In this document: positions 22,038 to 45,262 of the stretch, in pieces | Layout: each line of letters begins with the position of its first letter | Position numbering within the stretch: the stretch's first letter is position 1 | Notes under the pieces: model-generated | The model's input: only the letters and a program-made list of their open reading frames with translations | What the model was told of the DNA's origin: nothing | Database searches by the model: none | Program-made: the position numbers and the translations under genes | DNA from: a virus | Taxonomy: Duplodnaviria; Heunggongvirae; Uroviricota; Caudoviricetes | Length of the DNA stretch: 64,000 nucleotides | Direction: 5' to 3' (one strand) | IMG/VR virus record: IMGVR_UViG_3300017788_000010

Positions 22038-22823
22038 TCACTTTGAATACTGAGCACTGAACTCCTCTAAAGAAAGCTTGAGCCACCCCGCTCTGTTTAT
22101 AGGCGTATCCGAAAACGGGGTCAAATTAAACACGGAGGTGCCTTTAGAAGCAGCCCACGCAGGAAACTTGGAATAGAAGTCGGCGTGGTGCTCCTGCCAG
22201 TCGCCACCACCCGTAGACTGCACAGATAAACCATCGCCGTAGAAATGCGTCTCGGTACCCCGTAAATGTTGCTGAACTGCAGAAAAATCTACCCCTAGCA
22301 TCCCCACAACACGCGCACCACCTAAAACAGCTAGCTGTAGGCAATAAGCAGTGGTGGTGCCTTGGCGTATTAGCGGGTCACTAAGGCGATCAGGCCATAT
22401 CCAAGAAGCGGGTCTAGCGGGCGGTCCTAGCAGAAAGTACCGCGCATTAGGAAGCTCATGTACCCAGCTCTTAATGTAGTTGTGCCATACAAAAATAGGG
22501 CCTTTAAAAGCTCTATAGAAAGGCTCTTCTGCAGCCAGAATAGGCGGATCAGTGAACAACAAAGCAGTAGGGGAGTACACCCTGCCTATTCTATTGACGC
22601 CTATGGTTGTGAAAGAATCAAGTAAAGCTAAATTGACTTTATTAAGCGCTGGAGAATTGCCTAATACGATAACCACCTTATCCTTAAAGTCTATATGAGG
22701 ATCCGTGGCAAAGTTCTTTAGCCCGTGCTTGTTTTGTATAATCGCCTCTCTGGCGTCCTGTATTCTCTGTATTCTGAGCATGTGTACCTCTATAGAGTTA
22801 TACTGTATTACCGGGAGAAACAT
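22038..22823 (-). CDS. DUF115 / Maf (motility-accessory-factor)-like putative glycosyltransferase
   Basis: Motif KVVIVLGNSPALN ... TIGVNRI is typical of the MAF_flag10/DUF115 family implicated in nonulosonic-acid transfer and glycosylation. Confidence 0.5.
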   Translation of the reverse strand: MFLPVIQYNSIEVHMLRIQRIQDAREAIIQNKHGLKNFATDPHIDFKDKVVIVLGNSPALNKVNLALLDSFTTIGVNRIGRVYSPTALLFTDPPILAAEEPFYRAFKGPIFVWHNYIKSWVHELPNARYFLLGPPARPASWIWPDRLSDPLIRQGTTTAYCLQLAVLGGARVVGMLGVDFSAVQQHLRGTETHFYGDGLSVQSTGGGDWQEHHADFYSKFPAWAASKGTSVFNLTPFSDTPINRAGWLKLSLEEFSAQYSK

Positions 22824-28706: not shown

Positions 28707-28708
28707 TT

Positions 28709-32218: not shown

Positions 32219-32249
32219 ACAATAAGTATAGCAAAAAGATATGCAAAAA

Positions 32250-32263
32250 AAGGCATAAGATAT
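32250..32263 (+). promoter_or_regulatory. Conserved promoter-like motif AAGGCATAAGATAT (copy 6, lacks the TGTG part)
   Basis: Lies in the 105-bp divergent intergenic region, about 60 nt upstream of the ATG at 32324. Confidence 0.4.
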
Positions 32264-32323
32264 TTGATCCGACAGAGGTTGTCTCATATCGGACACACAC
32301 AGAGATATACGGAGATACTCAAA

Positions 32324-33223
32324 ATGCAATCGCTAGGTCGGCGAGTTGAAGCGGCGATCAAAAAGATCAAGGAAGAGGGAGGCTACATCGCCCTAATCGG
32401 GGGCATGCCACGCAACCTGCCTCCTTGGGTGTCGGAGAGCCGCTTGTTCAGGTTCATCAAAGACGGTGAGACCATCAGCGACACCTGCCGACTGTTGTTA
32501 GTTGGACGGCATATCCAACACAGTCATGAAAAGCGAAATAGGGCTCTCGCTCAAGGCAAAGACTTCCGCGGATTTGTTAAGACGGGTCAGCTGTCCAGCG
32601 TGCTGAAGGTCTTCAAGGACGAGCTGCTCCCCGACAGACGGTCCGTAGTCGTCGAAGCCCGGGTGACCGCCTCGGCGCCGGGTGAAGGGGTGGCCGAGCC
32701 TACGGCGGCCGAGGCGCCGAAGGTTGTCGCGCTGAAGCCCCCTGTTGGGGGTGACGGGGTAGCGCTGGCCAAGTTGTACGAGGAGCAAATCATCCAGAGG
32801 TACAGGGAGGGCCAAAGCGGAGCTCTTATTGGCCTGTGGCTCGTAACCAAAGCCCGAGAAGAGGGCTTTGAGCCGTCCGCAGACTACATGCGTCACCTGA
32901 CGCTGGCGGTTATCCGAAACTACAAGCAGCGGCGGAGCGACGGAGCCGAGCTGCTCGCCGAGTCCAACGAGCGCGCGACTGCGGAGACCGCAAAGATCCA
33001 GAAGAAGGTCGAGCAGCCGTCGACCACTGCGCAGCGCGTTGCTGCCGAGCTTGTGTCCGCAAACGAGTCGGTGGTGCTATCGGCTTCTGTGGCTGCGAAC
33101 CTGGAGGCGCTCGTTAACGGCCTCGGCGGAGTCGTGAATCTGGAAAAAGAGAACACTCGGCTCCGAGCGGAAAACGCGGCGCTCAAGGAGAAGCTCGAAA
33201 AGCTCAAGGCCGCCCTGAGCTAG
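32324..33223 (+). CDS. Hypothetical protein with C-terminal coiled coil (300 aa), mostly in a GC-rich island
   Basis: SD GGAGAT lies 8 nt upstream of the ATG. The C-terminal heptad-like segment is LEKENTRLRAENAALKEKLEKLKAAL. About 68% GC from 32.6 to 33.2 kb. Confidence 0.55.
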   Translation: MQSLGRRVEAAIKKIKEEGGYIALIGGMPRNLPPWVSESRLFRFIKDGETISDTCRLLLVGRHIQHSHEKRNRALAQGKDFRGFVKTGQLSSVLKVFKDELLPDRRSVVVEARVTASAPGEGVAEPTAAEAPKVVALKPPVGGDGVALAKLYEEQIIQRYREGQSGALIGLWLVTKAREEGFEPSADYMRHLTLAVIRNYKQRRSDGAELLAESNERATAETAKIQKKVEQPSTTAQRVAAELVSANESVVLSASVAANLEALVNGLGGVVNLEKENTRLRAENAALKEKLEKLKAALS

Positions 33224-33228: not shown

Positions 33229-33265
33229 AAACAATCCCCGGTTATTCCGAGGGTTGTTTTTTTAC
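33229..33265 (+). terminator. Bidirectional rho-independent terminator
   Basis: Hairpin AACAATCCCCGG-ttattc-CGAGGGTTGTT followed by TTTTTTT, between convergent genes. Confidence 0.65.
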
Positions 33266-34219
33266 CTGCTCCTGTATCCAAGCATACGTGGTGGCGAGGC
33301 CTTCTACTAGTGGTCGACTAGGGGCCCAATCTAAGCGCTTACGTATGAGCGCGTTATCACTATTGCGCCCAGCTACGCCCATGGGACCTGCTATGTGTTT
33401 TATCCTTACTTCTTTTTTAGCTATGTGCGCAATCATCCCAACTAGCTGGTTAATAGACACGCGCTCTTCAGATCCTATATTAACCACGTCTAGGCAATCA
33501 GATTGAGTTAGGCGTAAGATACCATCTAAGCACTCATCTATGTACAAAAATGATCGGGTTTGTTCACCTGTGCCCCACACCTCTATCTCACCACCTTCAG
33601 CAGGCAGTTCCGCTACTTTACGGCACAGAGCGGCGGGGGCTTTCTCTTTACCGCCCCGCCATGTACCTTCTGGTCCAAAGATGTTATGGAATCGGGCTAC
33701 ACGGACAGATAGGTCCCAGTTTCTTCTAGCGGCCAAATACATGCGCTCGCTAAACAGCTTCTCCCATCCATATTCAGAGTCTGGATTGGCGGGGTAGGCG
33801 GAAGACTCCTCACAGTTAGGATTATTAGGGTCGGTTTGATTCTCTGCTGGGTATATGCAAGCGGAGCTGGAGTAAAACACTCTAGCTCTACCAGACATGT
33901 ACTTAGCACAATGAAGATTTATGGAAGCAGAATTATGCATCACATTTGCGTCGTTCTCTCCGGTGAAGATGTATCCAGCCCCACCCATATCAGCAGCAAG
34001 TTGATACACATCTGACAGGTTTGGATAAGCGGAGACCAGGGTCTTCCACGAAGACTCGTTTCTGAGATCTAAGATATGGAAGTGATCAGCAGAAGTAAGC
34101 GCGTATTCCGGGTGCTTAAGATCTACACCAATTACAGCATGTCCTTGGCTCTTCAAACGCTTAACAAGGTGCGATCCAATAAAACCACCCGCTCCGCAAA
34201 CTAGTAAGGTACTAGTCAT
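33242..34219 (-). CDS. NAD-dependent sugar epimerase/dehydratase (extended SDR), 325 aa
   Basis: N-terminal GAGGFIGSHL Rossmann motif and catalytic Y-x3-K (YGWEK). Length and layout resemble GDP-fucose synthase or a UDP-sugar epimerase. Confidence 0.75.
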   Translation of the reverse strand: MTSTLLVCGAGGFIGSHLVKRLKSQGHAVIGVDLKHPEYALTSADHFHILDLRNESSWKTLVSAYPNLSDVYQLAADMGGAGYIFTGENDANVMHNSASINLHCAKYMSGRARVFYSSSACIYPAENQTDPNNPNCEESSAYPANPDSEYGWEKLFSERMYLAARRNWDLSVRVARFHNIFGPEGTWRGGKEKAPAALCRKVAELPAEGGEIEVWGTGEQTRSFLYIDECLDGILRLTQSDCLDVVNIGSEERVSINQLVGMIAHIAKKEVRIKHIAGPMGVAGRNSDNALIRKRLDWAPSRPLVEGLATTYAWIQEQVKKQPSE

Positions 34220-35033
34220 GACACAGCCTCCGAATGCCTTCTTGTATAGATACTGTAGGTTTCCAAAACTGTAAAAAATAAGGATTAGGGGCGTTCTTTA
34301 TACCCCTCTGTAGGTTGTCCTCATTTTTAGCACTACTAATAATGCACGGAATGTTGGCTTGAATCAGCTGCGCTACCTCAGCTACCGTAGTCCAGACATG
34401 ACTTGTAATATCTAAAAACTCGTCTTTGTTCAAGTTTTGATGATTGCTACACCAGAACGCAATAGCCTGTGCACAATCATCCACGTGAAGAAACTGCCTA
34501 GCCTCCGCTCCTGACGTACGCATCTTAATAACACCGTCGCGTTTAGCCATGCTAATAAAATCAGTGATGACGTGGCTCTTCGGAGAATCGGGGTCTTCAT
34601 AGCCGTAAGCGTTCCAAAACCGACAGGTCCATCCACCAAGAGACTGTGTATATCGTTCGCCTATAAGCTTCAGCGGGCCGTAGTTAGTATGCAACATATT
34701 AGCCATCTGGCTCGAAGCAAACAGGAACGGTTTTTTTGCTTTTTCTAAGGCACTAAACGTCAAGGACATTAACATCGAGTTTTCGTGTATATAAGAAAAC
34801 TGGCTGTCTCGTTCTGATAGATACTTACTTCCGCCAACCTCAAACGCTAGGAAAACCACCGCGTCGCACTCGGCGGTTGCTTGACACAGTCGGTCGTAAT
34901 TAGCGACCAAAGATAGATCTTCATCCGCCCCTCGAACTTTATCCCATTGTGCTACTACGTGCCCAAGGGATTCAAGGTGGGCGACTAAGGGTTTTCCTAT
35001 CTGACCACACGACCCGAGTACCAAAACCTTCAT
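34212..35033 (-). CDS. NAD(P)-binding sugar-nucleotide reductase/epimerase (RmlD-like), 273 aa
   Basis: N-terminal VLVLGSCGQIG Rossmann motif. Short-SDR length is typical of 4-keto-6-deoxy-sugar reductases. Confidence 0.6.
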   Translation of the reverse strand: MKVLVLGSCGQIGKPLVAHLESLGHVVAQWDKVRGADEDLSLVANYDRLCQATAECDAVVFLAFEVGGSKYLSERDSQFSYIHENSMLMSLTFSALEKAKKPFLFASSQMANMLHTNYGPLKLIGERYTQSLGGWTCRFWNAYGYEDPDSPKSHVITDFISMAKRDGVIKMRTSGAEARQFLHVDDCAQAIAFWCSNHQNLNKDEFLDITSHVWTTVAEVAQLIQANIPCIISSAKNEDNLQRGIKNAPNPYFLQFWKPTVSIQEGIRRLCHD

Positions 35034-35890
35034 TGTACACCTCCTAAGCGCTCAAAGCAGTTAACACGCATCCACTTATCAGGAGACGCGTATTCTCTAA
35101 ACCGCATAAAGTTGTCTTCTATGGCAGCCATTCTACTCATATAGTCTTCTGTAGAAAGTGACTGCAGGATAGTTACTAACTGATCAATTGTCGAAAAGAC
35201 TATCACACCTAATGGATTGAATATCTCCTGAATATTAGGGCAGCCCCAAAAAATAGGGACTGTTCCCGTTGCAAAACAATCGACAATCTTATCGGTAAAA
35301 TAATCTGTCACAGAACTGTTCTCTATAACTATGCTGTAGCAATAATCCTTGAACGGCATTAAGCGGCCTTCGTCTGTGTGCGGAAACGGGTTGTAGCCGC
35401 TTCCGTACAGCTCCGGGCACTTACCAACAGACCGTAAATACCGAATCACGTCGTGCCGCATCTGGTGTCCAGGGGCGTAGTTCTTATTAGAGGCCACCAT
35501 GGACAACATCTTGGATTTGTCGTAGATACGGCAGTTTGGTTCGGATATCCAGCACGCGCCGTAGCGCATCCTTTTGTACCTGTTGCCCCGCTTTAAAAGT
35601 ACTGGGTCGTGCGTGTATATTTCAGTAAACTGTGATTCAATAGCCGGTATTATGTTATAACCGTAGGGCTTAACTACTCGCGGCTCCATAAGCCAGGCAA
35701 CTTTGTGACGACTTTCGCACTCCAGCGCCTCTATATTACCAAGCTGCTCATCAGCGACAACAGTAACCCCGTCATACGAAGAGAGCGGCGGTCGTATGTA
35801 TTCTAGCTTGTGATCGGGCCACCACACATTCGCATAAGCATCTTTTTGTGGGATGGTTGTGCAGAACAGATTTACTTTAAACTTATCCAT
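35030..35890 (-). CDS. GT10-like alpha-1,3-fucosyltransferase family glycosyltransferase
   Basis: Segment FKDYCYSIVIENSSVTDYFTDKIVDCF matches the GT10 acceptor/donor motif (Y-x-F-x-L-x-FENS ... DY-x-TEK). Confidence 0.6.
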   Translation of the reverse strand: MDKFKVNLFCTTIPQKDAYANVWWPDHKLEYIRPPLSSYDGVTVVADEQLGNIEALECESRHKVAWLMEPRVVKPYGYNIIPAIESQFTEIYTHDPVLLKRGNRYKRMRYGACWISEPNCRIYDKSKMLSMVASNKNYAPGHQMRHDVIRYLRSVGKCPELYGSGYNPFPHTDEGRLMPFKDYCYSIVIENSSVTDYFTDKIVDCFATGTVPIFWGCPNIQEIFNPLGVIVFSTIDQLVTILQSLSTEDYMSRMAAIEDNFMRFREYASPDKWMRVNCFERLGGVQ

Positions 35891-36578
35891 AAAGATTCAT
35901 GTAGTCTTCTAAAACAATATCAACTTTAGGTCCGGTTCCGTACTTATTCAGGCCAGCGTAGTGAATAAAATCCGCCTTATAGCGTGCACGCTCCGGATCA
36001 GCCTTACCTAGGTGCATTCGATTGAACGCATACTCAAGATTACTAAAGGAAGCGCCTCGTTCTACGGACAGACAGTTTAGATATGTCTGATCTCCACAAA
36101 CCCACAAATTTCCTGAGTGGTGGCGCAGAGCATCCTTGTGATCTCTTAAGAACCCTGCGCTTATTGAAGACAGCACATACACACCTGTATTGAAATACCG
36201 CCTTCTCCCATTATGTTCTACAGGCCAAGGTATCTTTGGGTTGGTGCCATCAATCCATGGGTCCCTGTTCATATCAGCATAGTCTAGGTTCTCGTGCAGC
36301 GCGTAAAACCGTGTAGGATCCGAATGATGATGAAAGATGTTTCTAGCTGTAGGCGTAACAAGAATATCCAGATCAACCACAGCTACTTGACGGTACTTAT
36401 CTAAATGATCCAATACCTGTAGCCGCTCAAAATAGACGTTCTGCCAGTTGATTCTAGGTTGTGTCGCAACGATTAGATCAAGATCGTACTTTTGACAATA
36501 TTCCTCATACGTCCTCATAGAGGCCGCGTAAATAGGATTATCTCCCCCGATCTTTACCGTAAATAATGCGTTTCTCAT
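35883..36578 (-). CDS. GT8-like nucleotide-diphospho-sugar transferase
   Basis: D-x-D (VVDLDIL), FNTGVYVLS (GT8 FNxGVxxxN) and a C-terminal H-x-x-G...K motif. Confidence 0.55.
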   Translation of the reverse strand: MRNALFTVKIGGDNPIYAASMRTYEEYCQKYDLDLIVATQPRINWQNVYFERLQVLDHLDKYRQVAVVDLDILVTPTARNIFHHHSDPTRFYALHENLDYADMNRDPWIDGTNPKIPWPVEHNGRRRYFNTGVYVLSSISAGFLRDHKDALRHHSGNLWVCGDQTYLNCLSVERGASFSNLEYAFNRMHLGKADPERARYKADFIHYAGLNKYGTGPKVDIVLEDYMNLYG

Positions 36579-37351
36579 AAATCAATCACAGTAGAACTCG
36601 CTACTACCTTATCCCACTCACGAGGTGTTAGCATCTCGACGGTACTAGTAGTCACAGGATTAACCTGTCCTCTATGCTGATTGAGCTCTCTATGACTTAG
36701 ATGGAGTAGTTCGTTCTTACTTCTTGTGATACAAAACGAATTACTACGTAATCTTTCTGTAAACTCTGAATCCACGGCCCAGTTTTGATGCGCTAATAAA
36801 TAACCACCAACACGTAGATACTCGTCTTTCCTTATTAACAAAAAATCTCCTTGAGCGCCTGGGTGTGTTTGTCCACGAACCAGTTGCCTGTGTTCGTTAA
36901 CTAACGTGTCAAGAGGGAGTGCTACAGAAGAGTACGGGATCTCTGTCCTATTGGAAATCACTGCTTGCAGCATATCAGGCAATACGTTCTCACATGCCGT
37001 GTAGATGAGATCGTTATTACCAACCAAAACATGGGTAGTGCATACGTACTGTATCGCCAGGTGCTTGGCTACGTACTCATGAAAGTTGATCTTTCGGTGG
37101 CCTTGAATCTCTTTAGTAACCGCGTAAGGAACCGTTACGATTCTAACGTTAACAAAGCCATCAAAAAAAGAGCGCACAGGCTGTCTATCTTCAGCCGTTC
37201 CCCAATCAACTACAACAATAGGGCAATATCGGTAATGTTTACGGAAGCTGGTGGCGGTTAACAAGGTCTTTTTGATAGACTCGTTATCGATACCTAGCTC
37301 GCAAGCATAGGTATCGTTTCTAGTCGCCAGCACAAGGGTGACAGCAGACAT
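36575..37351 (-). CDS. Hypothetical protein (probable GT-A-fold transferase), 258 aa
   Basis: Embedded and translationally coupled within the glycan cluster. No definitive motif recognised. Confidence 0.4.
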   Translation of the reverse strand: MSAVTLVLATRNDTYACELGIDNESIKKTLLTATSFRKHYRYCPIVVVDWGTAEDRQPVRSFFDGFVNVRIVTVPYAVTKEIQGHRKINFHEYVAKHLAIQYVCTTHVLVGNNDLIYTACENVLPDMLQAVISNRTEIPYSSVALPLDTLVNEHRQLVRGQTHPGAQGDFLLIRKDEYLRVGGYLLAHQNWAVDSEFTERLRSNSFCITRSKNELLHLSHRELNQHRGQVNPVTTSTVEMLTPREWDKVVASSTVIDL

Positions 37352-37355
37352 TTCT

Positions 37356-37958
37356 TCAGACCTCAGAGACTTTCCTCAAAATGGTTAGTCCATTGTTCGT
37401 CGGGATCGTACAATACTCCCACTTAAACTTGGATTCTTTGAGGAATTCTTGCAGCCCGCCCCACGGTCCTTGTCCACCAAACTCATGGTCAGCCGGTAAC
37501 GTGGATGTGTTGTATTTAGGCATAGTATCTCCCCACATTAGATCATGCATGAGGATTAGCCCGTTAACGCTCAGCTTGTCTTCAAGAAGAAGCAGTTCTT
37601 TTTTAACGTGAGGTGTTGAGTGCCAATCATCAACAAACACTAGGTCATACTCTAGGTCATCAATAGATAGAAAGGCTATAGCCTCTTGCTGGATGAACGT
37701 CCAATACGGAGCGAGCTCTGTCGGAGGTCTGTATTGTGTGGGTTCAATATCTACAGAAAATACATGCCCTTCGGTTATAGCTGCAGCAAGCAAAAGAGGT
37801 TTGGTTGTGATTCCTCGGCGAACGCCTAGCTCTAGGATATTCTTCGCTCCAATTGATACACTAATGGACATAAGTGTAGCAAGATGGTGCGAGGTGTCGT
37901 CCATCCCCTGCTCGCTGACCTTAATAACATCTACGATATGTTCGGTTAAGATCTTCAT
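37356..37958 (-). CDS. Class I SAM-dependent methyltransferase
   Basis: Motif I ILELGVRRGITT plus acidic motif II/III (LVFVDD). Confidence 0.6.
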   Translation of the reverse strand: MKILTEHIVDVIKVSEQGMDDTSHHLATLMSISVSIGAKNILELGVRRGITTKPLLLAAAITEGHVFSVDIEPTQYRPPTELAPYWTFIQQEAIAFLSIDDLEYDLVFVDDWHSTPHVKKELLLLEDKLSVNGLILMHDLMWGDTMPKYNTSTLPADHEFGGQGPWGGLQEFLKESKFKWEYCTIPTNNGLTILRKVSEV

Positions 37959-38524
37959 CGAATAACCACCAATCTATCGTCGTTGCGCCCGTTAACCGCA
38001 GTAAGGTCAATCATCTCAGCTGTTCGGTTACTGGGCAGGTTTTGTTTAATCAACTTTAACCACCCCGCGGGGTCCGCGGGAGGTATGTCTTCAATTATCA
38101 TAATACCGTCCTTCTGCAATCGAGGGAGGAAGGCCTCTACCATAAAAACAATATCATATATGTGATGGCTTCCATCATCAACAATGATATCGAATAAGGT
38201 GTTATTGTTCTCAAAATAGCTAAGTACCTCTGGATCATGGATATTAGCTAAGATAAACTTGTATCTGTCAGACACGTACTTAGGTAGGCGCTTATCAACT
38301 ATATCAACACCGTAAAACGTGCCTGTAAAAAACTCTGTCCAGCTATGCAGGCTGCCTCCTCGGTCCACTCCTATCTCTAAAAGAGTTACCGGTGCTTTAG
38401 TGTATGAGGCCAATAAGCGATCATAGCTTTCGCCATAAACATGACCTAAAGCAAGGCCCTCAATATACCCGGAGTTTTTATCCGTGCCGTCGGCGTTCTT
38501 TTCAAAAATCTGTGATAACTTCAT
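37955..38524 (-). CDS. SAM-dependent methyltransferase (FkbM-like), probable sugar O-methyltransferase
   Basis: Motif I LLEIGVDRGGS and motif DIIVDDGSH. Confidence 0.6.
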   Translation of the reverse strand: MKLSQIFEKNADGTDKNSGYIEGLALGHVYGESYDRLLASYTKAPVTLLEIGVDRGGSLHSWTEFFTGTFYGVDIVDKRLPKYVSDRYKFILANIHDPEVLSYFENNNTLFDIIVDDGSHHIYDIVFMVEAFLPRLQKDGIMIIEDIPPADPAGWLKLIKQNLPSNRTAEMIDLTAVNGRNDDRLVVIR

Positions 38525-39306
38525 CCGGGAAACATCATTCCTTTCTGTAAAAAACGCTCGTAGTTAGTGCGTAAGTACGCAGGGTATTCTTCTTTGTGTA
38601 TATCGATCCGCTTTAGAACAAAATCGGGTCGATCAAATGGATCTCTAAAATTACGCATACGGGCGCGTATGGCTGTCAAGTCTGTAAAGCGCTCTAGATT
38701 ATACTCGCTATGAGCAAATGTCTTTATTTTAGTACTTATGGCCTCTGCTCCTCCTTGAAAGGAGAAGTGCCATCCCGCGTCTTTAAACGGAAGTAGTGAG
38801 TGCCGTTGTTGCCGATACCAATCGGGTCTTTGCATATCTTTTCGTCTAAAAACCGTGGTAGTAAGCTGCTGACGATGATTGCCTGGTTGCTCAACTGAGA
38901 CATCCAGATAATAGTAGCAGCAGCGATGACACAGTACTATGTCCTCATCAGCTTTGGCAACTTGTTTAAGTTTTAGCGGGTTGGGGATCTCATCCACGTC
39001 AGAGACCATAATTACAGCGTCGTCTGGTAGATTAACTAGTCCACGCTCACAGGCGTTACGCATATGTCTTTCAGCTAACCAAAAATCTGCGTTAATAGGC
39101 GCATCGTCTACCACAACGTGCGTAATACGATCTCGAAAGTCAGAAAACCTGTCCTGATTATTCTTGAATATGAGGTCTTTCGAAAGACCTGATTGCGTAG
39201 TCAGGCTCTCTACTAACACAAAACGATCTACGGTGTTTTTTAGAACGTTGAGCCGTATCTCTAAGATATCCAGCTCGTTAAAGAACTGAAAACAATCTAC
39301 TATCAT
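38521..39306 (-). CDS. GT17-like glycosyltransferase (beta-1,4-GlcNAc-transferase family)
   Basis: N-terminal DCFQFFNELDILEIRL is the hallmark start of Glyco_transf_17 family proteins. D-x-D at MVSDVDE. Confidence 0.5.
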   Translation of the reverse strand: MIVDCFQFFNELDILEIRLNVLKNTVDRFVLVESLTTQSGLSKDLIFKNNQDRFSDFRDRITHVVVDDAPINADFWLAERHMRNACERGLVNLPDDAVIMVSDVDEIPNPLKLKQVAKADEDIVLCHRCCYYYLDVSVEQPGNHRQQLTTTVFRRKDMQRPDWYRQQRHSLLPFKDAGWHFSFQGGAEAISTKIKTFAHSEYNLERFTDLTAIRARMRNFRDPFDRPDFVLKRIDIHKEEYPAYLRTNYERFLQKGMMFPG

Positions 39307-39929
39307 CTACCTTCTCCATTACTTCCGAATAATCTCGGTCTAATTAAGTATATCGGCTCTTCCAACCACCCTACCGTAAATCCTGCTTTTTTACAAAGAC
39401 ATATGTGCCAATAGTCTGTGTAATCTACAGCGGTAAAGAAGTGGCTGTCTACAAGATTATATGGTACATGAGCAAATACAGACGCTCTATATGTAGGAAT
39501 AACGACATTTGTGCGTATCAAGCCTTTACTAGCGGCGCCGGGACCGCAGCGAACAGTGCCGTCCGCTAATTGAGCCCCTGGTATCCATATATCTATATCA
39601 GGAAACCGGGCAAACCTGTTCAATAGAATGTCCGAGGCGCCCGCAATCAGCTCGTCATCGTCGTCTAGAAACGTTACAAACTCTGAATCAGCTAAAGCAA
39701 TGGCGGCGTTAGCGGCTATACAGCCGTAATGCCCGTACGATCTAGGTACGCGTAGTATATTTGCTTCTGTAGCACATACGGCTTCAAAAAGCGTTGTATT
39801 AGAAGAATCCACAGTAACGCCGTCCAGCACTACAGTAACCGGTAACTTGTTTTGCTTACACGACTCAATTGAAGATAAAAGAGTGGGCCTAAGCAGGCTT
39901 CTTATGATCACAGTTGTTTTAGAAGTCAT
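39303..39929 (-). CDS. GT2 family glycosyltransferase
   Basis: TVVIRSL ... FLDDDDEL (GT-A D-x-D). Confidence 0.55.
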   Translation of the reverse strand: MTSKTTVIIRSLLRPTLLSSIESCKQNKLPVTVVLDGVTVDSSNTTLFEAVCATEANILRVPRSYGHYGCIAANAAIALADSEFVTFLDDDDELIAGASDILLNRFARFPDIDIWIPGAQLADGTVRCGPGAASKGLIRTNVVIPTYRASVFAHVPYNLVDSHFFTAVDYTDYWHICLCKKAGFTVGWLEEPIYLIRPRLFGSNGEGR

Positions 39930-40623
39930 TCGGTTGAAGCTTTCTAGCGAGGTCCGCTCTTATGCGATCAAAATACACGTTTGTTTTGGGTTGGTCTCTA
40001 GCAGGTATCCATTCCTCGCCTTGGTACATAATCTTGGTTTGTGTGTTACAGGAGATGTCAAAAACATGCTGCCACATAACGTCACGCGCAATAACGATCT
40101 TCCAGCCAGCGACTACAGCACGTAGCTGCAGCTCAACCTCATCTGCAAGAGGAGAAGCTACAGGATCGTACATTCCGATCTCGTCCAGCATCTTTTTTCT
40201 AAACGCTATCAAGAAGCCTTGGACAGCTGTACCGTCCACGCATTTTTCAGAATAGCTAAGTGGCTTAAGCCGGCCCTCAGCAACGCCAACTATACCTACA
40301 CGAGGATCATTAAATTCCTCCAGGATCTTTTCATAAGTATCGTCTCCAACGCGACAATCGTCGTTAAGCGCCACCACGACATCGCCTGTACACAGCGACA
40401 TTCCGATATTAAAGGCTTTAGCGCATCCTACGTTCTGAGAACACCTGACCCATCTAGCCACCGGTGCGGATCTGACATAATCAGTAATACCGTCAGACAC
40501 GTTCCCGTAGTTGTTTATGACCACAACAAGTTCAGCGGGTATTGTAGATTCTTTTATATCACCGACAACGTTTTGGATGTTCCTTAGGCTTTTATAACCT
40601 ATCGTCGCAACAGACAGCTTCAT
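39919..40623 (-). CDS. GT2 family glycosyltransferase
   Basis: VVVINNYGN ... ALNDDCRV. Start set at Met 22, which gives an ATGA overlap with the upstream gene. Confidence 0.55.
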   Translation of the reverse strand: MKLSVATIGYKSLRNIQNVVGDIKESTIPAELVVVINNYGNVSDGITDYVRSAPVARWVRCSQNVGCAKAFNIGMSLCTGDVVVALNDDCRVGDDTYEKILEEFNDPRVGIVGVAEGRLKPLSYSEKCVDGTAVQGFLIAFRKKMLDEIGMYDPVASPLADEVELQLRAVVAGWKIVIARDVMWQHVFDISCNTQTKIMYQGEEWIPARDQPKTNVYFDRIRADLARKLQPNDF

Positions 40624-41591
40624 AGTAGTTTTCTGATTACCTCTATTGAATAATCTGCCAGGGCTACGGGGTCGAGGTTCTCGCACTCTAGGTTACACCT
40701 ATCAGACTGGCTGACGCCTCCGAACACCTCTGTGTAGTAAGATCGACACTTAAACCTACATGGTAGGTGTAGATGATCAGGATAAAACGCGGTCTGCAAT
40801 TTGAAAAACTCCGCCTTGTTTACCAATGTTCCAGTAAAAAGAATTACCGGCTTCTTCAAAAAGTTAAAGACGTTGTGAATGCCGCCATCAGACATTATTC
40901 CTAAATCCGAGGACCAGCAGTAATCAACTATATTCGACAAACCTTTAATAGGCGGGACGTATGTTCCGTCAATACCTAAGGGTTCCTCAGCTAAGTACTC
41001 AATGGTTACTAAATCACCTAACGCCGCGGTTATTCGCTCCGCTAGGATTTTCCAGGAGTCAAGCTTATATCGTAGACCTACGCCGTTACAGCCTGGATGA
41101 GGAGAAGGCCGTCCTGCTAGCTTAGTTGCGGGCACAAGAACTAGTTTGAACCTGTCTCCGGGCTGACGTGTTTTTACGGGACGTAGAAGAGGCGTAAAAT
41201 CAAAATCCGAGAAAACCTCCTCCTCTAGCCCTAATTGTAATAGGTAGTTTGTAGTCAATATGTTAGCTGTCGGATGATCAAACAGCTTTCTAGAGTACTG
41301 CTTCCAAAACTTGAACAATAGCGGATGCCACGCCGGATACACAGTCTTAGTATCGGAATACTGAGACTGTGTCGACAGCGCGGCTTGTTTGTAGTCGCTA
41401 AGCGGTGTACTAAGCTCGGCTGCTGTAGGAGCCCGGGATGGGTCTTTAAGAATGTCCCGAATATTCTGATCCGCCACAACGGTAACATCAGTGCCGTACA
41501 CCTTACGCAAGAGCGGCGGTATAAATGTAGTTACTACCGAGTCTCCGATATTATTCGGATATAGCCAGCTAGGCGCTACTAACTCAATCAT
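40620..41591 (-). CDS. Hypothetical glycan-cluster protein (323 aa)
   Basis: Coupled within the cluster. No confident motif. Confidence 0.4.
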   Translation of the reverse strand: MIELVAPSWLYPNNIGDSVVTTFIPPLLRKVYGTDVTVVADQNIRDILKDPSRAPTAAELSTPLSDYKQAALSTQSQYSDTKTVYPAWHPLLFKFWKQYSRKLFDHPTANILTTNYLLQLGLEEEVFSDFDFTPLLRPVKTRQPGDRFKLVLVPATKLAGRPSPHPGCNGVGLRYKLDSWKILAERITAALGDLVTIEYLAEEPLGIDGTYVPPIKGLSNIVDYCWSSDLGIMSDGGIHNVFNFLKKPVILFTGTLVNKAEFFKLQTAFYPDHLHLPCRFKCRSYYTEVFGGVSQSDRCNLECENLDPVALADYSIEVIRKLL

Positions 41592-42337
41592 AACACAACA
41601 GCGGTTCGTAGCGGCTTATTATAGCTATCCTGAGCACAACTAGCTTGCTCAAAATAACGCAGGCTTGCCTCATGCAACGGGTTTGTGCCGTTGTATACCA
41701 CTAAGTTTTTTTGTATAAACACTACCGAAGAGCTGCCAGCCATCTCAAAGATAGGTAAACATATAACAACGTCCGGTGCGGCAGTAAAATATTCACCATT
41801 GTCGTCTCTAAGATGCTTATCTTCTAGATGCTTAGTATAGCCTACACGAAACGTTCTAAGATGAGAAAACGGCCACCCATTTTTCTTCAAATCACGCCGT
41901 AGATTAGACCAATCAGGAACACGACAACAAGAAGGTATTCCTCTATCATCTACGTAGTTTCCGTAGGTTGCGCCCGCTCCTGTGTCTCGGTACACATAAT
42001 GTACTGTAGATACAGCGGCTTTTGTACTAAACCAATCATCCCCATCTAGTTGCGCAATAACATCATAGTCAGTGCCGAGTTCTCGGGCTTTAGCAAATCC
42101 ATCTAGTTGCGACTGTATAGGGCCTAGATTCTTTTCGTGTGTAATAACAATTTGTCTAGGCCCACTATATTTTTTGATCTCGTCGGCTGTCTTATCAGTA
42201 GACCCGTCATCGATTATGATGTGGTGAATTTCAAAATCGTCTGTTATCTGCTCATTAACAGATTGGATACATTTACCTATATAGGCTTCTGCATTATATG
42301 TACCTGACACAACAAAATACTTCTTAGGTGCCTGCAT
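41588..42337 (-). CDS. GT2 family glycosyltransferase
   Basis: YFVVSGTYNAEAYIGKCIQS ... HIIIDDGSTDKT ... LDGDDWF. Confidence 0.65.
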   Translation of the reverse strand: MQAPKKYFVVSGTYNAEAYIGKCIQSVNEQITDDFEIHHIIIDDGSTDKTADEIKKYSGPRQIVITHEKNLGPIQSQLDGFAKARELGTDYDVIAQLDGDDWFSTKAAVSTVHYVYRDTGAGATYGNYVDDRGIPSCCRVPDWSNLRRDLKKNGWPFSHLRTFRVGYTKHLEDKHLRDDNGEYFTAAPDVVICLPIFEMAGSSSVVFIQKNLVVYNGTNPLHEASLRYFEQASCAQDSYNKPLRTAVVL

Positions 42338-42908
42338 GTATTTTCTTTCTGTTAACTCTACTTGCTTGAGTATGCAGTATTACGGGGTTGGGTACTGTCG
42401 CTAATCCGCTTATCCACACATATTCTTCAGGTATATTCAACCAGTCGTAGGACCCGGCCTCGATTATTTTTTGTAGTGTTTTCTGATCCCATGTTCCCGG
42501 CTCGGTTTTGTTACGGGAATCCCACAAAGCTACCAAGTCTTTACATGTTTCTGTATTAGGTAAATAAAGCGTGCCTGACAAAAGCTCTACTCCTCTGAAA
42601 TAGTGAAAGGCTATATCACACTCAGGGAATCTATCAAACAATGTGGGATAGCTAAGTACGCGGGCGTCTGAATCTAGGTACACTACAGGGCCTGTAATCT
42701 CTTCTAGAGCTTTACACAACACCGCGCTCTTGAGCTGTGTATTTCTTTCCCAGGAACCAGTAGATACCACAGCATATTCCTTATGAATAAGCTTGTGCTT
42801 ATCTAATGTTTCAACTAGTTTTTTTGATTCTGCTTCATACGGAGTATTGATAGTGTAAAAAGATACGTAGGTCGGCTTAGTCGTCATACCCACCAAAATC
42901 TTCAACAC
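42324..42908 (-). CDS. Nucleotide-diphospho-sugar transferase-like protein (194 aa)
   Basis: VVYLDSDARV (D-x-D) in a GT-A-like context. First gene of the leftward cluster. Confidence 0.45.
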   Translation of the reverse strand: MLKILVGMTTKPTYVSFYTINTPYEAESKKLVETLDKHKLIHKEYAVVSTGSWERNTQLKSAVLCKALEEITGPVVYLDSDARVLSYPTLFDRFPECDIAFHYFRGVELLSGTLYLPNTETCKDLVALWDSRNKTEPGTWDQKTLQKIIEAGSYDWLNIPEEYVWISGLATVPNPVILHTQASRVNRKKIHAGT

Positions 42909-43094
42909 CTATTTTGTCTTTTGGGCGAAACGTTAGTACCCGTCCGGTCTTCAATACTATCTGAACGGACGTTTCACTTATTCTAGTTACCTCTAAAACA
43001 CGTACGGCCACACCATCCTCTCGGATAACGTCGCCTGCAAGAACATCCTCTGCTTGAATCAACTTCGCCATACAAACTACCTAAACTCCAAAAA

Positions 43095-43111
43095 AATGTG
43101 TCATAAGATAT
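43095..43111 (+). promoter_or_regulatory. Conserved promoter-like motif ATGTGTCATAAGATATC (copy 4)
   Basis: Motif copy in the divergent region between the glycan cluster and the plus-strand genes. Confidence 0.45.
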
Positions 43112-43394
43112 CTGATGATCCTGGATTATGTGATGTACGTATGCTCCGAGGCTGTCGTCTAATTCCTAGCTCTATGCACAAGCTGGGATCAGATATAAGC
43201 TTTGTTCTAGCAGCACTGTCCAGGGAATTCACTACGGCCCGCGCATCCGCCTTTTCTTTAGGCGTAGTCTCCGCCAATAGCGTGATCATGGCCGCCACAA
43301 GGCTGTCCCTGTGCGCATTAAGCGCAGCGATCACTTCCGTTAGCGCGGCGTACTTTTCACAATGCTCAGTAAAATGAGTTGTTCTGGTAGTCAT
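43101..43394 (-). CDS. Hypothetical helical protein (97 aa)
   Basis: More protein-like than the overlapping plus ORF 43054..43377. No clear SD. Confidence 0.3.
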   Translation of the reverse strand: MTTRTTHFTEHCEKYAALTEVIAALNAHRDSLVAAMITLLAETTPKEKADARAVVNSLDSAARTKLISDPSLCIELGIRRQPRSIRTSHNPGSSDIL

Positions 43395-43639
43395 TTGTAG
43401 GGTCTTTCTGCTACGTCTTACTGAAGTATAGTAGCGAGCGGCCTTGCTTTGTTTAAAAAACCCAAATTATTTGCTCATCGGTATTGAGAGATTTCAACCT
43501 ATAATATAGGCGCTTTATTGTGGCTTATATCGATAGGAAGAAATAACCTCCGTGCAAGTGCAGCGCTTGCCGAAACTGTAACCCGCCAGCATCCAAAAGA
43601 CCGGCATGTCTTTAAGGTATAAAAGACATCGCCTAAGCG

Positions 43640-45215: not shown

Positions 45216-45223
45216 CGACTACA

Positions 45224-45262
45224 AGCAGTATGTGGGGGAAACCCCACGTACTGCTTTTTTAC
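45224..45262 (+). terminator. Bidirectional rho-independent terminator
   Basis: Hairpin AGCAGTATGTGGGG-gaaa-CCCCACGTACTGCT followed by TTTTTT, between convergent genes. Confidence 0.7.

Follow-up and report, generated by a model that had tools for sequence, protein, structure and literature searches.

What thirteen consecutive phage genes might build, and on which acceptor they would place it, is the question raised by a block on the minus strand (33242..42908) of an uncultured large phage. We analyzed this block within a window of 64,000 nucleotides, i.e., the whole stretch of DNA under study. The 13 ORFs run head to tail, and 11 of the 12 junctions overlap by 4 to 14 nt, mostly in the ATGA form, the remaining one being a 4-nt gap; the thirteen-gene, translationally coupled block described by the initial annotation was thus confirmed. 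Its products comprise nine glycosyltransferases (GT10, GT8-like, GT17, three GT2, one GT-A and one GT9/TibC-like by fold, and one weak candidate), two SAM methyltransferases, and two nucleotide-sugar SDRs, and the block is a single transcription unit for glycan synthesis. Its location in a phage also held, as the window encodes a baseplate J-like protein, a 3752-aa ORF, an SNF2 helicase, and tRNAs. The baseplate J-like gene, which ends at 14299 (~19 kb off), is the nearest structural gene, and the immediate neighbors of the operon are small non-structural genes. The following features border the block.

42877-43071, minus strand: small ORF of 64 aa, a gene on all public contigs
43101-43394, minus strand: small ORF of 97 aa, a gene on all public contigs
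43395..43639, no strand: divergent intergenic region of 245 nt, with the operon on one side and a plus-strand Metallophos gene on the other
33236..33252, minus strand: terminator-like hairpin at the g1 stop codon, with a 6-bp stem (5 G-C pairs) followed by a T-rich tail

The two small ORFs, neither of which has a Pfam match, probably open the transcription unit; the stop codon of the 64-aa ORF overlaps an ATG of g13 at 42887 by 11 nt. Since the 245-nt region is the sole sizeable non-coding gap bordering the block, it likely contains the operon's promoter, and no match to a sigma-70 consensus or a T4 late promoter was detected in it. The hairpin is the probable 3' end of the operon, and past it a convergent plus-strand gene ends at 33223.

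The last two genes of the operon encode the nucleotide-sugar SDRs.

33242..34219, minus strand: g1, predicted GDP-mannose 3,5-epimerase (GME/GM35E), 325 aa, last gene of the operon; Pfam Epimerase 1.9e-38
34212..35033, minus strand: g2, divergent extended SDR (nucleotide-sugar 4-oxidoreductase class), 273 aa; Pfam Epimerase 3.8e-18

Residues 6-323 of g1 matched Arabidopsis GME (2c59) with an E value of 6.7e-90 in a PDB search, and all eight GME fingerprint residues are kept (S119, C121, Y150, K154, N179, K193, R222, and R285). These retain the S/Y/K triad, the C/K acid/base pair, and the equivalents of R306, R243, and N203; the base is Lys, whereas that of GDP-fucose synthase is His. The identification of g1 as a GME is therefore well supported at the sequence level, and the same match and fingerprint rule out a fucose synthase or a dehydratase. 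Homologues in cyanophages and viral contigs share 55-62% identity with g1, and 37 cultured cyanophage records hold one at 55-58%. No 4,6-dehydratase is encoded in the cluster or the 64-kb window. Given that g1 appears to be a GME and that this dehydratase is lacking, the predicted donor is GDP-L-galactose or GDP-L-gulose rather than a deoxyhexose, which leaves the fucose-type pathway proposed earlier unsupported. Both are 6-hydroxy analogues of fucose that fucosyltransferases accept, and GDP-L-Gal serves alpha-1,3- and alpha-1,6-fucosyltransferases as a source of L-galactose (PMC8787198). Host GDP-L-fucose could equally well be the donor.

The second SDR, g2, carries the motifs GxxGxxG (residue 7) and YxxxK (residue 118), but the SSAC of GME is replaced by SSQM and the K193-bearing loop of GME is missing. 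Its family profile matched UXS, GalE-type enzymes, and GDP-fucose synthases, with none clearly ahead, and no substrate can be assigned. Orthologues occur in S-SSM7 (42% identity) and in the loci L006 and L008. Since three loci pair a g2 homologue with a GT10-like gene without a GME, the link to L-galactose is not obligatory.

Eight of the glycosyltransferases are as follows.

35030..35890, minus strand: g3, GT10-like (alpha-1,3-fucosyltransferase-type), 286 aa; Pfam Glyco_transf_10 4.8e-11, 43.1 bits (cut-off 23.9)
35883..36578, minus strand: g4, GT8-like, 231 aa; Pfam Glyco_transf_8 E 0.0018, below cut-off; DLD at residue 69
36575..37351, minus strand: g5, GT-A fold glycosyltransferase, 258 aa; no Pfam family, fold from model; specific to this phage
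38521..39306, minus strand: g8, GT17 family, 261 aa; Pfam Glyco_transf_17 3.7e-27, 95.8 bits (cut-off 26)
39303..39929, minus strand: g9, GT2-like, 208 aa; Pfam Glycos_transf_2 2.6e-5, 24.7 bits (cut-off 23.3); DDD at residue 89
39919..40623, minus strand: g10, GT2, 234 aa; Pfam Glycos_transf_2 2e-12, Glyco_tranf_2_3 1e-11
41588..42337, minus strand: g12, GT2, 249 aa; Pfam Glycos_transf_2 7.6e-20
42324..42908, minus strand: g13, possible GT-A-type nucleotide-diphospho-sugar transferase (weak), 194 aa; Nucleotid_trans E 8.3e-4, 19.8 bits (cut-off 22)

The motifs quoted by the initial annotation are both present, IENSSVTDYFTDK in g3 (residue 190) and FNELDILEIRL in g8 (residue 9). In g3, which matched the C-terminal domain of H. 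pylori FucT (2nzw, 5zoi) at 1e-8, IENSSVTDYFTDK aligns with FENTQGYGYVTEK of the H. pylori enzyme, although g3 has an Asp (TDK) where characterized enzymes have a Glu (TEK). Homologues of g3 are found in S-SM2, S-SSM7, S-SCSM2R, S-T4, and huge phages, and those of g8 in Synechococcus phages and one 642-kb uncultured phage. No homologue of g9 was found in the related loci, making it specific to this phage; its best NCBIfam match is PglI, a lipid-linked oligosaccharide glucosyltransferase. The g10 start is most likely the ATG at 40623 rather than the GTG at 40686 of the mechanical ORF, the 234-aa start being used by all public gene calls and overlapping the stop codon of g11 as ATGA. For g13, which has a DSD motif at residue 79, no PDB or PHROG match and no homologue in the related loci were found; it may start at the ATG at 42887, giving 187 aa.

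Two further genes could modify the glycan.

37356..37958, minus strand: g6, class I SAM-dependent methyltransferase, 200 aa; Pfam Methyltransf_24 6.5e-12; ILELG at residue 41
37955..38524, minus strand: g7, class I SAM-dependent methyltransferase, 189 aa; Methyltransf_24 7.2e-7, 30.5 bits (cut-off 26.3); LLEIG at residue 48

A weaker match links g6 to O-methyltransferases (Methyltransf_3, 1.9e-4). The families assigned by Pfam are those of glycosyltransferases and sugar-nucleotide enzymes, and with the folds of g5 and g11 they bear out that the block is self-contained, combining glycosyltransferases with nucleotide-sugar SDRs and methyltransferases. The earlier calls of GT10, GT17, GT2, two SDRs, and two methyltransferases all exceeded their cut-offs, whereas the GT8 call did not: the Glyco_transf_8 match of g4 (0.0018) and the Nucleotid_trans match of g13 (about 8e-4) fall below Pfam's thresholds. 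For the g4 orthologues of L006 and L008, PF01501 matches are available from precomputed annotation. Neither g5 nor g11 has a family at the sequence level, and their high-confidence models (pLDDT 90-91) point to GT-A and GT9-like GT-B folds, respectively.

40620..41591, minus strand: g11, predicted GT9-fold (TibC/heptosyltransferase-like) GT-B, 323 aa, with a C-terminal Cys4 motif

The top structural match of the g11 model is TibC, suggesting that g11 is a GT9-like GT-B glycosyltransferase of a phage-restricted family, for which no Pfam or PHROG model exists. Four conserved cysteines (278, 282, 299, and 303) directly precede its last helix and, judged by chain position, occupy the same region as the Fe-binding Cys339/342/358/370 of TibC, a motif that touches the protein substrate in TibC. 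Unlike TibC, g11 lacks an N-terminal beta-barrel. Its catalytic motifs are invariant in 36 homologues. Family members were found in 20 viral contigs and, among 185,579 bacterial species, in three short MAG contigs, so that the family appears essentially absent from bacterial genomes.

A collinear core of GT2, GT9-like, GT8, GT10, SDR, and epimerase genes (g12-g11-g4-g3(-g2-g1)) is shared by at least 25 loci from viruses or metagenomes at 28-62% identity, with flanks that share almost nothing with this window. Among the 25 loci holding a g11 homologue, 21 also hold a g4 homologue, and in 17 a g12 homologue lies directly upstream of that of g11; a GME, a second SDR, and a GT10-like gene occur together in at least seven viral loci. 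The synteny and the invariant g11 motifs imply functional constraint on the core. These observations bear on whether the system works at all, as the block could be mis-binned or chimeric bacterial DNA or decaying "stuffer" DNA from horizontal transfer, an idea proposed for cyanophage clusters (PMC3037559). The GC3 of the cluster is indeed lower than that of the other window genes (0.434 versus 0.476), and the flanks of the module differ between phages. However, the same DNA (99.99-100% identity) with the same phage-gene junctions was present in four independent assemblies from separate samples, and the block is no assembly artifact; all 13 ORFs are intact and tightly overlapping; catalytic residues are kept in g1, g3, and g11; and both the 25-locus synteny and the near confinement of the g11 family to viral contigs speak against bacterial debris. 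We thus strongly disfavor a non-working system, to which we assign almost no weight, and consider it highly probable that the operon is functional and synthesizes glycan from GDP-L-galactose or GDP-L-gulose.

In our proposed chain, a soluble cytoplasmic assembly line would produce a short, methyl-capped hetero-oligosaccharide containing an L-hexose. Following the well-supported epimerization by g1, the GT10-type g3 may transfer the L-sugar made via the adjacent g1, while g2, being of the 4-oxidoreductase type without the epimerization Cys/Lys pair, may supply or trim another nucleotide sugar. At the family level, g11, g4, g8, g9/g10/g12, g5, and possibly g13 are suited to build the rest of the glycan, and g6 and g7 would O-methylate sugar hydroxyls. 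The weakest link is the acceptor, which would most likely be proteins of the phage itself, glycosylated in the cytoplasm ahead of virion assembly or in its course. We rate the whole chain, from donor to phage-protein acceptor, just short of an even chance.

None of the 13 proteins contains a 19-mer with a hydrophobicity above 2.0 (Kyte-Doolittle), and no ORF of at least 200 aa with at least four TM-like segments was found in the 64-kb window or the 25 related loci (385 ORFs scanned). Beside the module, none of these loci encodes a phosphoglycosyl transferase to initiate the glycan, nor a flippase, polymerase, ligase, or any further polytopic membrane protein. Since no such protein accompanies the cluster and g11 resembles the protein-glycosylating TibC, including its Cys4 motif, a cytoplasmic acceptor is favored, and the evidence would lean modestly toward protein. 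A virion protein as acceptor remains a tentative reading that we place below even. Counter to it, g11 is without the TibC barrel, the structural genes are not adjacent to the operon, and peripheral soluble glycosyltransferases could use host undecaprenyl-linked intermediates together with host export. GT9, GT8, and GT2 are also classical LPS-core and O-antigen families, and the published reading of the homologous cyanophage clusters is host-surface modification.

According to that reading, which we consider rather unlikely here, the enzymes would act on host undecaprenyl-PP or lipid A-core intermediates and, using the host's initiating transferase, flippase, and ligase, would alter LPS, O-antigen, or exopolysaccharide during infection. 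Possible consequences include a superinfection block, no re-adsorption of progeny to lysing cells, or changed recognition by grazers. This is how cyanophage "LPS gene clusters" are normally understood, and the literature so reads those of P-SSM2, S-SSM7, S-SCSM1, and S-SCSM2R. The PglI match of g9, the tie of bacterial GME to LPS synthesis (PMC8787198), and the operon's location away from virion genes, amid non-structural ones, are consistent with this reading. In contrast, PGT, Wzx, Wzy, WaaL, and an ABC transporter are absent near the cluster in this window and the 25 related loci, and the near absence of the g11 family from bacteria would be surprising if the enzyme were adapted to an LPS intermediate of the host. 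The same core also occurs in phages whose flanks are unrelated and whose hosts probably differ; since the module moves between phages with its core unchanged, a phage-borne acceptor fits better than a host-specific lipid intermediate. Host envelope remodeling by such a cluster has no experimental support in any lytic phage.

The soluble nature of every enzyme and the lack of an encoded acceptor-defining component would also suit a free methylated oligosaccharide, glycolipid, or glycosylated small molecule, with protein, LPS, and DNA left undecorated. Such a product might be an osmolyte, a decoy receptor freed at lysis, or a cytoplasmic polymer resembling methyl-mannose or methyl-glucose polysaccharides, and O-methylated cytoplasmic polysaccharides do occur in bacteria. 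However, no primer-forming or lipid-handling enzyme was recognized, it is not obvious what a lytic phage would gain, and we know of no precedent in phages, making this outcome improbable.

Slightly less probable still is DNA hypermodification, in which the glycosyltransferases would place a multi-sugar methylated glycan on hydroxymethylated pyrimidines as protection from restriction or CRISPR nucleases. In phages, 5hmC or 5hmU can indeed receive anything from a single sugar to an oligosaccharide from GT-A and GT-B enzymes, in pathways that can include epimerases and secondary glycosyltransferases (bioRxiv 10.1101/2023.12.21.572611); the authors describing S-SCSM2R raised this possibility, and a relative of this phage lineage encodes ThyX. 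Known pathways of this type are encoded together with ThyS-type hydroxymethylases, 5mYOX/TET dioxygenases, or C5-methyltransferases (bioRxiv 10.1101/2023.12.21.572611), but none of these is encoded in the operon or the 64-kb window, nor do the L006 and L008 gene lists include such genes next to the cluster. Moreover, nine glycosyltransferases and two sugar methyltransferases far exceed any described DNA glycan, and the GT10, GT17, and GT9 folds have no link to DNA substrates in that study.

The initial annotation also associated a distant gene with the cluster.

22038..22823, minus strand: ORF called DUF115/Maf-like, outside the operon; PF01973 E 0.053 (cut-off 34.6 bits)

This call fared poorly. 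The ORF lies 11 kb from the cluster, a PDB profile search gave no match, and 17 of its 22 relatives match PF01973, all below cut-off (best E 1.9e-5); no glycan genes lie near its relatives in the two related large contigs examined.

Virion glycosylation in chloroviruses and some mycobacteriophages provides the model for our proposed acceptor. T4-like cyanophages have large "LPS" or cell-wall gene clusters, with descriptions dating back to 2005 (PMC1079782, PMC3037559, PMC9602691, PMC12801897), and these, with the 37 cyanophage records of the epimerase, contradict the statement that such toolkits are rarely reported in phages. The cultured cyanomyoviruses S-SSM7, S-SM2, P-SSM2, and S-SCSM2R carry such clusters, and S-SSM7 has a GME, a second SDR, and a GT10-like gene within four genes (SSSM7_253/255/256), followed by a methyltransferase. 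The operon is thus real but has precedents, being one variant of the "LPS gene clusters" of big aquatic phages, themselves unexplained, to which it adds a collinear core recurring in at least 25 loci with unrelated flanks and a putative GT9-like, phage-restricted family with a TibC-like Cys4 motif.

The thirteen consecutive minus-strand open reading frames (ORFs) that the initial annotation had placed at 33242-42908 lie exactly there, and its description of them as tightly packed also held, as 11 of the 12 junctions overlap by 4 to 14 nt, mostly as ATGA, and the remaining junction is a 4-nt gap. The genes are numbered here from the 3' end, such that g1 is the last gene of the operon and g13 the first. 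Public gene calls on identical contigs start g10 at ATG 40623 (234 aa) and do not use the upstream GTG; they also add two small genes of 64 and 97 aa on the same strand immediately upstream of the block, and the 64-aa ORF overlaps a second possible g13 start at 42887. Upstream, a divergent gap of 245 nt (43395-43639) delimits the unit; at the other end lie a terminator-like hairpin (33252-33236) and a convergent gene. Two assemblies from JGI, one from ENA, and one from SRA/Logan, all four independent, contain the same sequence at 99.99 to 100% nucleotide identity, with 144,691 bp being the longest contig that carries the operon sequence, and the operon region is no assembly chimera. GC3 is slightly lower in the cluster (0.434) than in the rest of the window (0.476). 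The T4-type late promoter TATAAATA was dropped as a clue to timing, since it occurs once in 64 kb relative to 3.1 expected occurrences; sigma-70-like sites were not enriched either.

Family assignments of the thirteen operon genes (33242-42908, minus strand)
g1, g2: NAD-dependent epimerase/dehydratase SDRs, Pfam match above threshold
g3: GT10, Pfam match above threshold
g4: GT8-like
g5: GT-A, from structure prediction
g6, g7: Methyltransf_24, Pfam match above threshold
g8: GT17, Pfam match above threshold
g9, g10, g12: GT2, Pfam match above threshold
g11: GT9-type GT-B, from structure prediction
g13: possible glycosyltransferase, from a weak Pfam match

Pfam assignments exceeded threshold for 9 of the 13 genes, the g8 match to PF04724 covering residues 2 to 211 (95.8 bits relative to a gathering cut-off of 26, E = 3.7e-27). 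The g4 product scored 18.3 bits against PF01501, under the cut-off of 24.3, and its orthologues in two related viral loci, L006 and L008 (38 to 39% identical), carry unmarked precomputed PF01501 hits. Sequence searches of PDB and PHROGs with g4, g5, g11, and g13 were empty. The g5 and g11 products matched no family at the sequence level and were resolved by structure prediction only. For g5, an exhaustive HMMER search recovered only relatives at ≤30% identity, and the model built on these, which has a GT-A fold, had a pLDDT of 89.9; g9, g10, and g12 exceed the gathering cut-off of PF00535. For g13, Pfam gave just a weak Nucleotid_trans match, and BLASTP found no relation to g4. Given these Pfam families, the g4 orthologue hits, and the g5 and g11 models, all 13 products are glycan enzymes, namely, nine glycosyltransferases (one of them, g13, weakly assigned), two methyltransferases, and two nucleotide-sugar SDRs, in agreement with the families that the initial annotation had named.

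The surroundings of the operon are those of a phage and include a baseplate J/gp6-like gene, a 3752-aa ORF, an SNF2 helicase, HNH and HTH genes, four tRNAs, and a DenV-like glycosylase. The following neighboring features were observed.

Features near the operon and elsewhere in the window
23625-28706 and 60669-60742, plus strand: four tRNA genes (Ser-TGA, Val-TAC, Pro-TGG, and Ala-TGC), interspersed with an HNH endonuclease gene (25118-25753) and HTH genes (24239-24877 and 26915-27457)
28646-29152, plus strand: DenV-like pyrimidine-dimer DNA glycosylase (Pyr_excise, 1.9e-18)
31667-32329, minus strand: Band_7/SPFH-domain protein (2.6e-15) just downstream of the operon, of a membrane-scaffold family unusual for a phage
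43640-44437, plus strand, and 45528-46259, minus strand: two calcineurin-like metallophosphoesterases on the upstream side of the operon
45223-45256: hairpin terminator with a 15-bp stem, between the two metallophosphoesterases
55583-57345, plus strand: reverse transcriptase (RVT_1, 2.7e-17; phrog_2825), followed by an overlapping 259-aa ORF without a family
57664-60191, plus strand: 591-aa Prok-JAB deubiquitinase-like protein, followed directly by a ThiF/E1-like protein (PF00899, 6.8e-10)

The tRNA, HNH, and HTH stretch looks like a variable region resembling the flanks of cyanophage sugar clusters, and the DenV-like glycosylase points to a sunlit aquatic habitat. The Prok-JAB and ThiF/E1-like proteins are a phage-encoded ubiquitin-like conjugation/deconjugation pair adjoining the reverse transcriptase. 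For the latter, a role in a diversity-generating retroelement was unsupported, as no template/variable direct repeat of ≥40 nt was found in the 44- to 64-kb region.

The initial annotation had proposed that the cluster makes a fucose-type deoxyhexose glycan. The g1 product aligned with Arabidopsis GDP-mannose 3,5-epimerase (GME) over residues 6 to 323 (E = 6.7e-90, 305 bits), and its next-best family was GDP-fucose synthase (1.9e-21). GM35E enzymes are set apart from GalE and GDP-fucose synthase by an S143/Y174/K178 triad, a C145/K217 acid-base pair in which Lys217 replaces the His of GMER, an acidifying R306 in place of Lys, R243, and N203 (PMC8787198). The equivalents of these residues in g1 (S119, Y150, K154, C121, K193, R285, R222, and N179) are all conserved in the alignment to the Arabidopsis enzyme, and, as judged by the similarity and this fingerprint, g1 is classed as a bona fide GDP-mannose 3,5-epimerase. 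Since GDP-mannose 4,6-dehydratase is absent from both the operon and the 64-kb window, the encoded route is predicted to turn GDP-D-mannose into GDP-L-galactose or GDP-L-gulose and to yield no 6-deoxyhexose, and the sugar chemistry of the initial proposal calls for correction.

The GT10-like product of g3 matched PF00852 over residues 124 to 249 (43.1 bits relative to a gathering cut-off of 23.9, E = 4.8e-11). The alpha-1,3-fucosyltransferase nucleotide-binding motif, sought as FxxxFENSxxxxYxTEK, is kept in g3 save for a Glu-to-Asp change (IENSSVTDYFTDK): when g3 YSIVIENSSVTDYFTDK was aligned to H. pylori FNLCFENTQGYGYVTEK, the Asn, Tyr, and Lys were retained. The sequence-level alignment was confined to the C-terminal domain; GT10 enzymes also have an N-terminal acceptor domain with a catalytic Glu (Glu95 in HpFucT). 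In vitro, GDP-L-Gal serves alpha-1,3- and alpha-1,6-fucosyltransferases as a donor of L-galactose, and in the Arabidopsis mur1 mutant L-Gal takes the place of L-Fuc (PMC8787198). Since fucosyltransferases accept GDP-L-Gal, the predicted route fits a GT10-type enzyme encoded two genes upstream of g1.

The second SDR, g2, is a shortened extended SDR with intact GxxGxxG and YxxxK motifs. Because it has SSQM in place of the SSAC of GME and is missing the loop that bears the Lys base, g2 is not a 3,5-epimerase. Its assignment as GDP-fucose-synthase-like on the basis of an "HVITDF" motif was rejected, since UDP-xylose synthases (UXS), GalE-type epimerases, and GDP-fucose synthases were matched by the family profile with about equal strength and the region of the motif is one that extended SDRs have in general. 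We left g2 as a putative 4-oxidoreductase-type enzyme; a host dehydratase feeding g2 could give rise to a deoxy sugar, though none is encoded here.

We then considered g11, for which 61 unannotated homologue clusters were found. The protein had no match in Pfam, including PF01075, even at E values up to 10, and no sequence-level match to TibC, while its family profile matched 3tov marginally (E = 0.027). The predicted model (pLDDT of 91.3) has a GT9-type GT-B fold, and two motifs, N14-x-G16-D17 in the N-lobe and D235-G236-G237-x-H239 in the C-lobe, align to the LGDV and NDSGPMH catalytic motifs of 3tov. Across 36 homologues, N14, G16, D17, D235, G236, and H239 do not vary, and G237 hardly does. 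The N-terminal G-D motif and the C-lobe D-G-G-x-H are shared with TibC/AAH (BAHT) and with the GT9 enzymes WaaC and WaaF. TibC binds Fe through Cys339/342/358/370, which make up an insert that precedes the C-terminal helix and touches the substrate, and this iron finger has been described as a TibC-only feature (PMC4358343). The g11 sequence likewise has four conserved cysteines (Cys278, 282, 299, and 303; three are invariant, and C278 is present in ≥90% of homologues) at what appears to be the equivalent place before the last helix, albeit with a spacing of CX3C-X16-CX3C rather than the CX2C-X15-C-X11-C of TibC. When BAHT features (Cys4 iron finger, N-terminal beta-barrel, and dodecamer) were sought, the four conserved cysteines were seen in the sequence, and the beta-barrel is absent because the catalytic domain begins at residue 1. 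The margin of TibC over LPS heptosyltransferases as a match for g11 was small, and the operon encodes no ADP-heptose pathway.

The g11 family also differs from BAHT and GT9 enzymes in being restricted to phages. It was present in 20 IMG/VR viral contigs in an alignment-based scan and in just three short contigs of metagenome-assembled genomes (MAGs) among 185,579 species genomes, and tblastn with the family gave no match in 50,697 phage records. This unannotated family marks the cassette, and phage protein glycosyltransferases may be sought in it as a concrete candidate.

A collinear core of operon homologues recurs around g11 homologues in 25 loci. Its strand and order are constant, with contig ends cutting some of the loci.

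Homologues of operon genes among the 25 loci
g4 (GT8): 21 of 25
g12 (GT2): 17 of 25
g3 (GT10): 15 of 25
g10: 13 of 25
g2: 10 of 25
g8: 10 of 25
g1 (true GME): 7 of 25

The genes g5, g9, and g13 are extras peculiar to this phage. At the nucleotide level, megablast of the whole block matched nothing in the 50,697 phage records. Scanning IMG/VR with only the GT10-like protein gave no hits. Cassette variants on contigs of 217 and 226 kb have extra methyltransferases, a radical-SAM enzyme, or a fused GT2/GT4. Two other loci have features of their own.

Features of two other loci
L008 (SRR20217193 contig, 217 kb), 12855-14589: radical-SAM and Methyltransf_23 genes that replace the two Methyltransf_24 genes; a Metallophos gene also lies near this cassette
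L005 (LR756502.1, 642-kb uncultured phage), 1456-15702: non-orthologous SDR, GT2, and GT17-like group of ~15 kb

The L008 variant suggests that sister cassettes tailor their sugars differently, for instance by C-methylation or deoxygenation, and, since L005 has its own group, sugar-gene groups recur in huge phages too. Beyond the cassette, almost nothing is common to the window and the related loci; conserved flanks were dropped as a clue to the acceptor because a single, unrelated small ORF is all that they share. The structural and replication genes of the window are distant relatives of those of Bacillus phage G, Salmonella phage Arash, and Pseudanabaena phage PA-SR01 (27 to 39% identity for the baseplate and helicase proteins), and the carrier phage does not belong to the Kyanoviridae. 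Judged from these comparisons, large aquatic phages exchange the cassette, and selection maintains it. Since 2005, proposals for what sugar-gene clusters do in big lytic aquatic phages have ranged from host-surface change to stuffer DNA; the collinear recurrence of an exchanged and selected cassette between unrelated flanks disfavors the latter.

Where the glycan goes was approached through membrane functions. None of the 13 proteins had TM-like segments, and none of the 385 ORFs of ≥200 aa scanned in the window and the 25 related loci had ≥4 of them. Pfam and the TM scan likewise revealed no phosphoglycosyl transferase, flippase, ABC transporter, polymerase, or ligase of the kind found in a Wzx/Wzy/ABC locus. 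Because the TM scan was empty, the cassette is not accompanied by a phosphoglycosyl transferase, flippase, polymerase, ligase, or permease, and the movement of the core among unrelated phages without a membrane export component argues for a cytoplasmic or phage-borne acceptor. The nine glycosyltransferases of the operon, cytoplasmic and without export functions, follow the pattern of chlorovirus capsid glycosylation and of mycobacteriophage virion glycosylation (Freeman et al. 2023, as summarized in PMC12619734). TibC, which the signature enzyme g11 resembles, glycosylates a beta-helical protein in the cytoplasm. Based on the lack of export machinery, the chlorovirus and mycobacteriophage pattern, and the resemblance of g11 to TibC together with its Cys motif, we tentatively rank glycosylation of phage proteins first among the possible fates, with confidence that falls short of even.

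Remodeling of the host envelope is a strong rival, if a doubtful one in its own right. GT9, GT8, and GT2 are LPS-type families, the preference of g11 for TibC over LPS heptosyltransferases is slight, g11 has no TibC beta-barrel and its Cys4 likeness is one of sequence, and the operon lies ~19 kb from the nearest structural gene. Soluble glycosyltransferases can, moreover, use host lipid-linked intermediates as substrates, and these points together keep this rival strong. A third destination, the phage DNA itself, is very improbable: known hypermodification pathways cluster with ThyS, 5mYOX/TET dioxygenase, or C5-MT genes, whereas a ThyS-type hydroxymethylase, 5mYOX/TET, and C5-cytosine methyltransferase are all absent from the operon and the 64-kb window.

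Three large ORFs of the window are listed next.

Large ORFs of the window
1083-12341, minus strand: 3752-aa ORF directly downstream of the baseplate J/gp6-like gene (12341-14299), with an IPT/TIG repeat near residue 2450 as its sole recognizable domain
46966-49437 and 50649-53132, minus strand: 823-aa and 827-aa ORFs in one overlapping minus-strand gene string

The 3752-aa ORF is probably a fibre or baseplate-attached protein and is a candidate glycan acceptor. The 823-aa and 827-aa ORFs, which had been called spikes, had no match in Pfam, PHROGs, or the 50,697 phage records; they may be spikes, polymerase subunits, or something else.

The initial annotation had also named a DUF115/Maf-like ORF (22038-22823, minus strand) alongside the cluster. 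This ORF scored 13.7 to 14 bits against PF01973 (DUF115/Maf/MptE-like; cut-off of 34.6, E = 0.05), 17 of its 22 relatives give sub-threshold PF01973 matches (best E value of 1.9e-5), and its family profile had no match in PDB. Two relatives whose context was examined lie on large contigs, one of them in a window-like neighborhood, with no glycan genes nearby, and in other phages the cassette has no homologue of the ORF within 10 kb. The ORF is possibly a remote relative of the MptE/Maf superfamily, but given the sub-threshold matches and the lack of glycan genes or cassettes around its homologues, we do not include it in the system.

These observations make specific predictions. The pairing of GME with a fucosyltransferase-type enzyme predicts an unusual product sugar, L-galactose or L-gulose, possibly O-methylated, which is testable in cultured cyanophages that have these genes; a candidate priming enzyme and a cytoplasmic acceptor are predicted as well. 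If virion glycosylation is true, it would revise the view of how abundant aquatic phages adsorb, are grazed, and are recognized by immune systems or lectins and would also provide enzymes for making L-galactosides, whereas a product that belongs to host LPS would be an ordinary addition to a known class. A specialist would be unsurprised by the finding itself.

Clusters of this kind have long been known. The cyanophage "LPS gene clusters", described in 2005 and 2010, make up the greater part of the extra genome size in P-SSM2 and S-SSM7 (PMC1079782, PMC3037559), and S-SCSM2R is reported to have 13 glycosyltransferases, including a GT10, and 22 cell-wall genes (PMC12801897). The T4-like cyanomyoviruses P-SSM2, S-SSM7, S-SM2, S-SCSM1, and S-SCSM2R, which are large lytic aquatic myoviruses, likewise carry big blocks of nucleotide-sugar epimerase, glycosyltransferase, and methyltransferase genes. 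We found GME homologues, 55 to 58% identical, in 37 cultured cyanophage records, and given these and the published clusters, the suggestion that such toolkits are rarely reported in phages was overstated. GT10-like genes are present in S-SM2, S-SSM7, S-SCSM2R, S-T4, and others and in uncultured phages of 480 to 735 kb. In S-SSM7 and S-SM2, the second SDR (42% identical) and the GT10-like protein (29 to 34%) are encoded close together and, with GME, are arranged similarly to their homologues here; the order in S-SSM7 is GME (253), a hypothetical gene, the g2 orthologue (255, 42%), GT10-like (256), a methyltransferase (257), and more glycosyltransferases. Since three genes have cyanomyovirus homologues in published "LPS" clusters, the kind is already known. 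The clusters differ, however, in that just 3 of the 13 genes are common, the core of g12, g11, and g4 was missing from those cluster regions of S-SSM7 and S-SM2 that were examined, and the present operon is compact, translationally coupled, and without the heptose, Kdo, UDP-glucose dehydrogenase, and dehydratase genes of the cyanophage clusters. What is new here, inside this long-known class, is a compact mobile cassette with a formerly unannotated, phage-specific GT9-fold enzyme.

The chlorovirus PBCV-1 likewise brings its own enzymes for GDP-sugars, a number of soluble glycosyltransferases, and an activity that O-methylates sugars, and its glycans, which contain fucose-type L-sugars and O-methylated sugars, are made in the cytoplasm independently of any ER/Golgi-type or lipid-carrier machinery of the host. 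In contrast to the phage considered here, PBCV-1 is a eukaryotic virus that makes GDP-fucose via GMD and GMER rather than GME, its acceptor is the major capsid protein, and its enzymes are mostly multidomain and non-homologous in detail to those of the operon. It is conceivable, if on balance rather unlikely, that a horizontally mobile phage-only cassette with a core of GT2, a TibC-like Cys4-finger GT9-fold enzyme, GT8, GT10, an SDR, and GDP-mannose 3,5-epimerase coats virion proteins such as beta-helical fibres or spikes with an O-methylated L-galactose glycan in large aquatic phages of unrelated lineages, which would make it the bacterial-virus counterpart of chlorovirus capsid glycosylation and would supply the long-missing function of the cyanophage clusters.

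A proven precedent for cytoplasmic glycosylation of virion proteins is found in mycobacteriophages, whose glycosyltransferases modify the C termini of capsid and tail-tube subunits (Freeman et al. 2023, as summarized in PMC12619734). The operons described there are small, typically of 2 to 4 genes, belong to siphoviruses of Actinobacteria, and are not known to be homologous to the present operon. For the sugar itself, the closest likeness is to the GME of plants and Methylacidiphilum combined with a promiscuous fucosyltransferase, a pairing demonstrated in vitro and in Arabidopsis mur1 (PMC8787198). In this phage, g1 keeps every GM35E fingerprint residue and the fucosyltransferase-family gene g3 lies two genes upstream; in plants, by contrast, the two genes are not in an operon and GME mainly feeds ascorbate, whereas here the putative pairing is genetic and viral.
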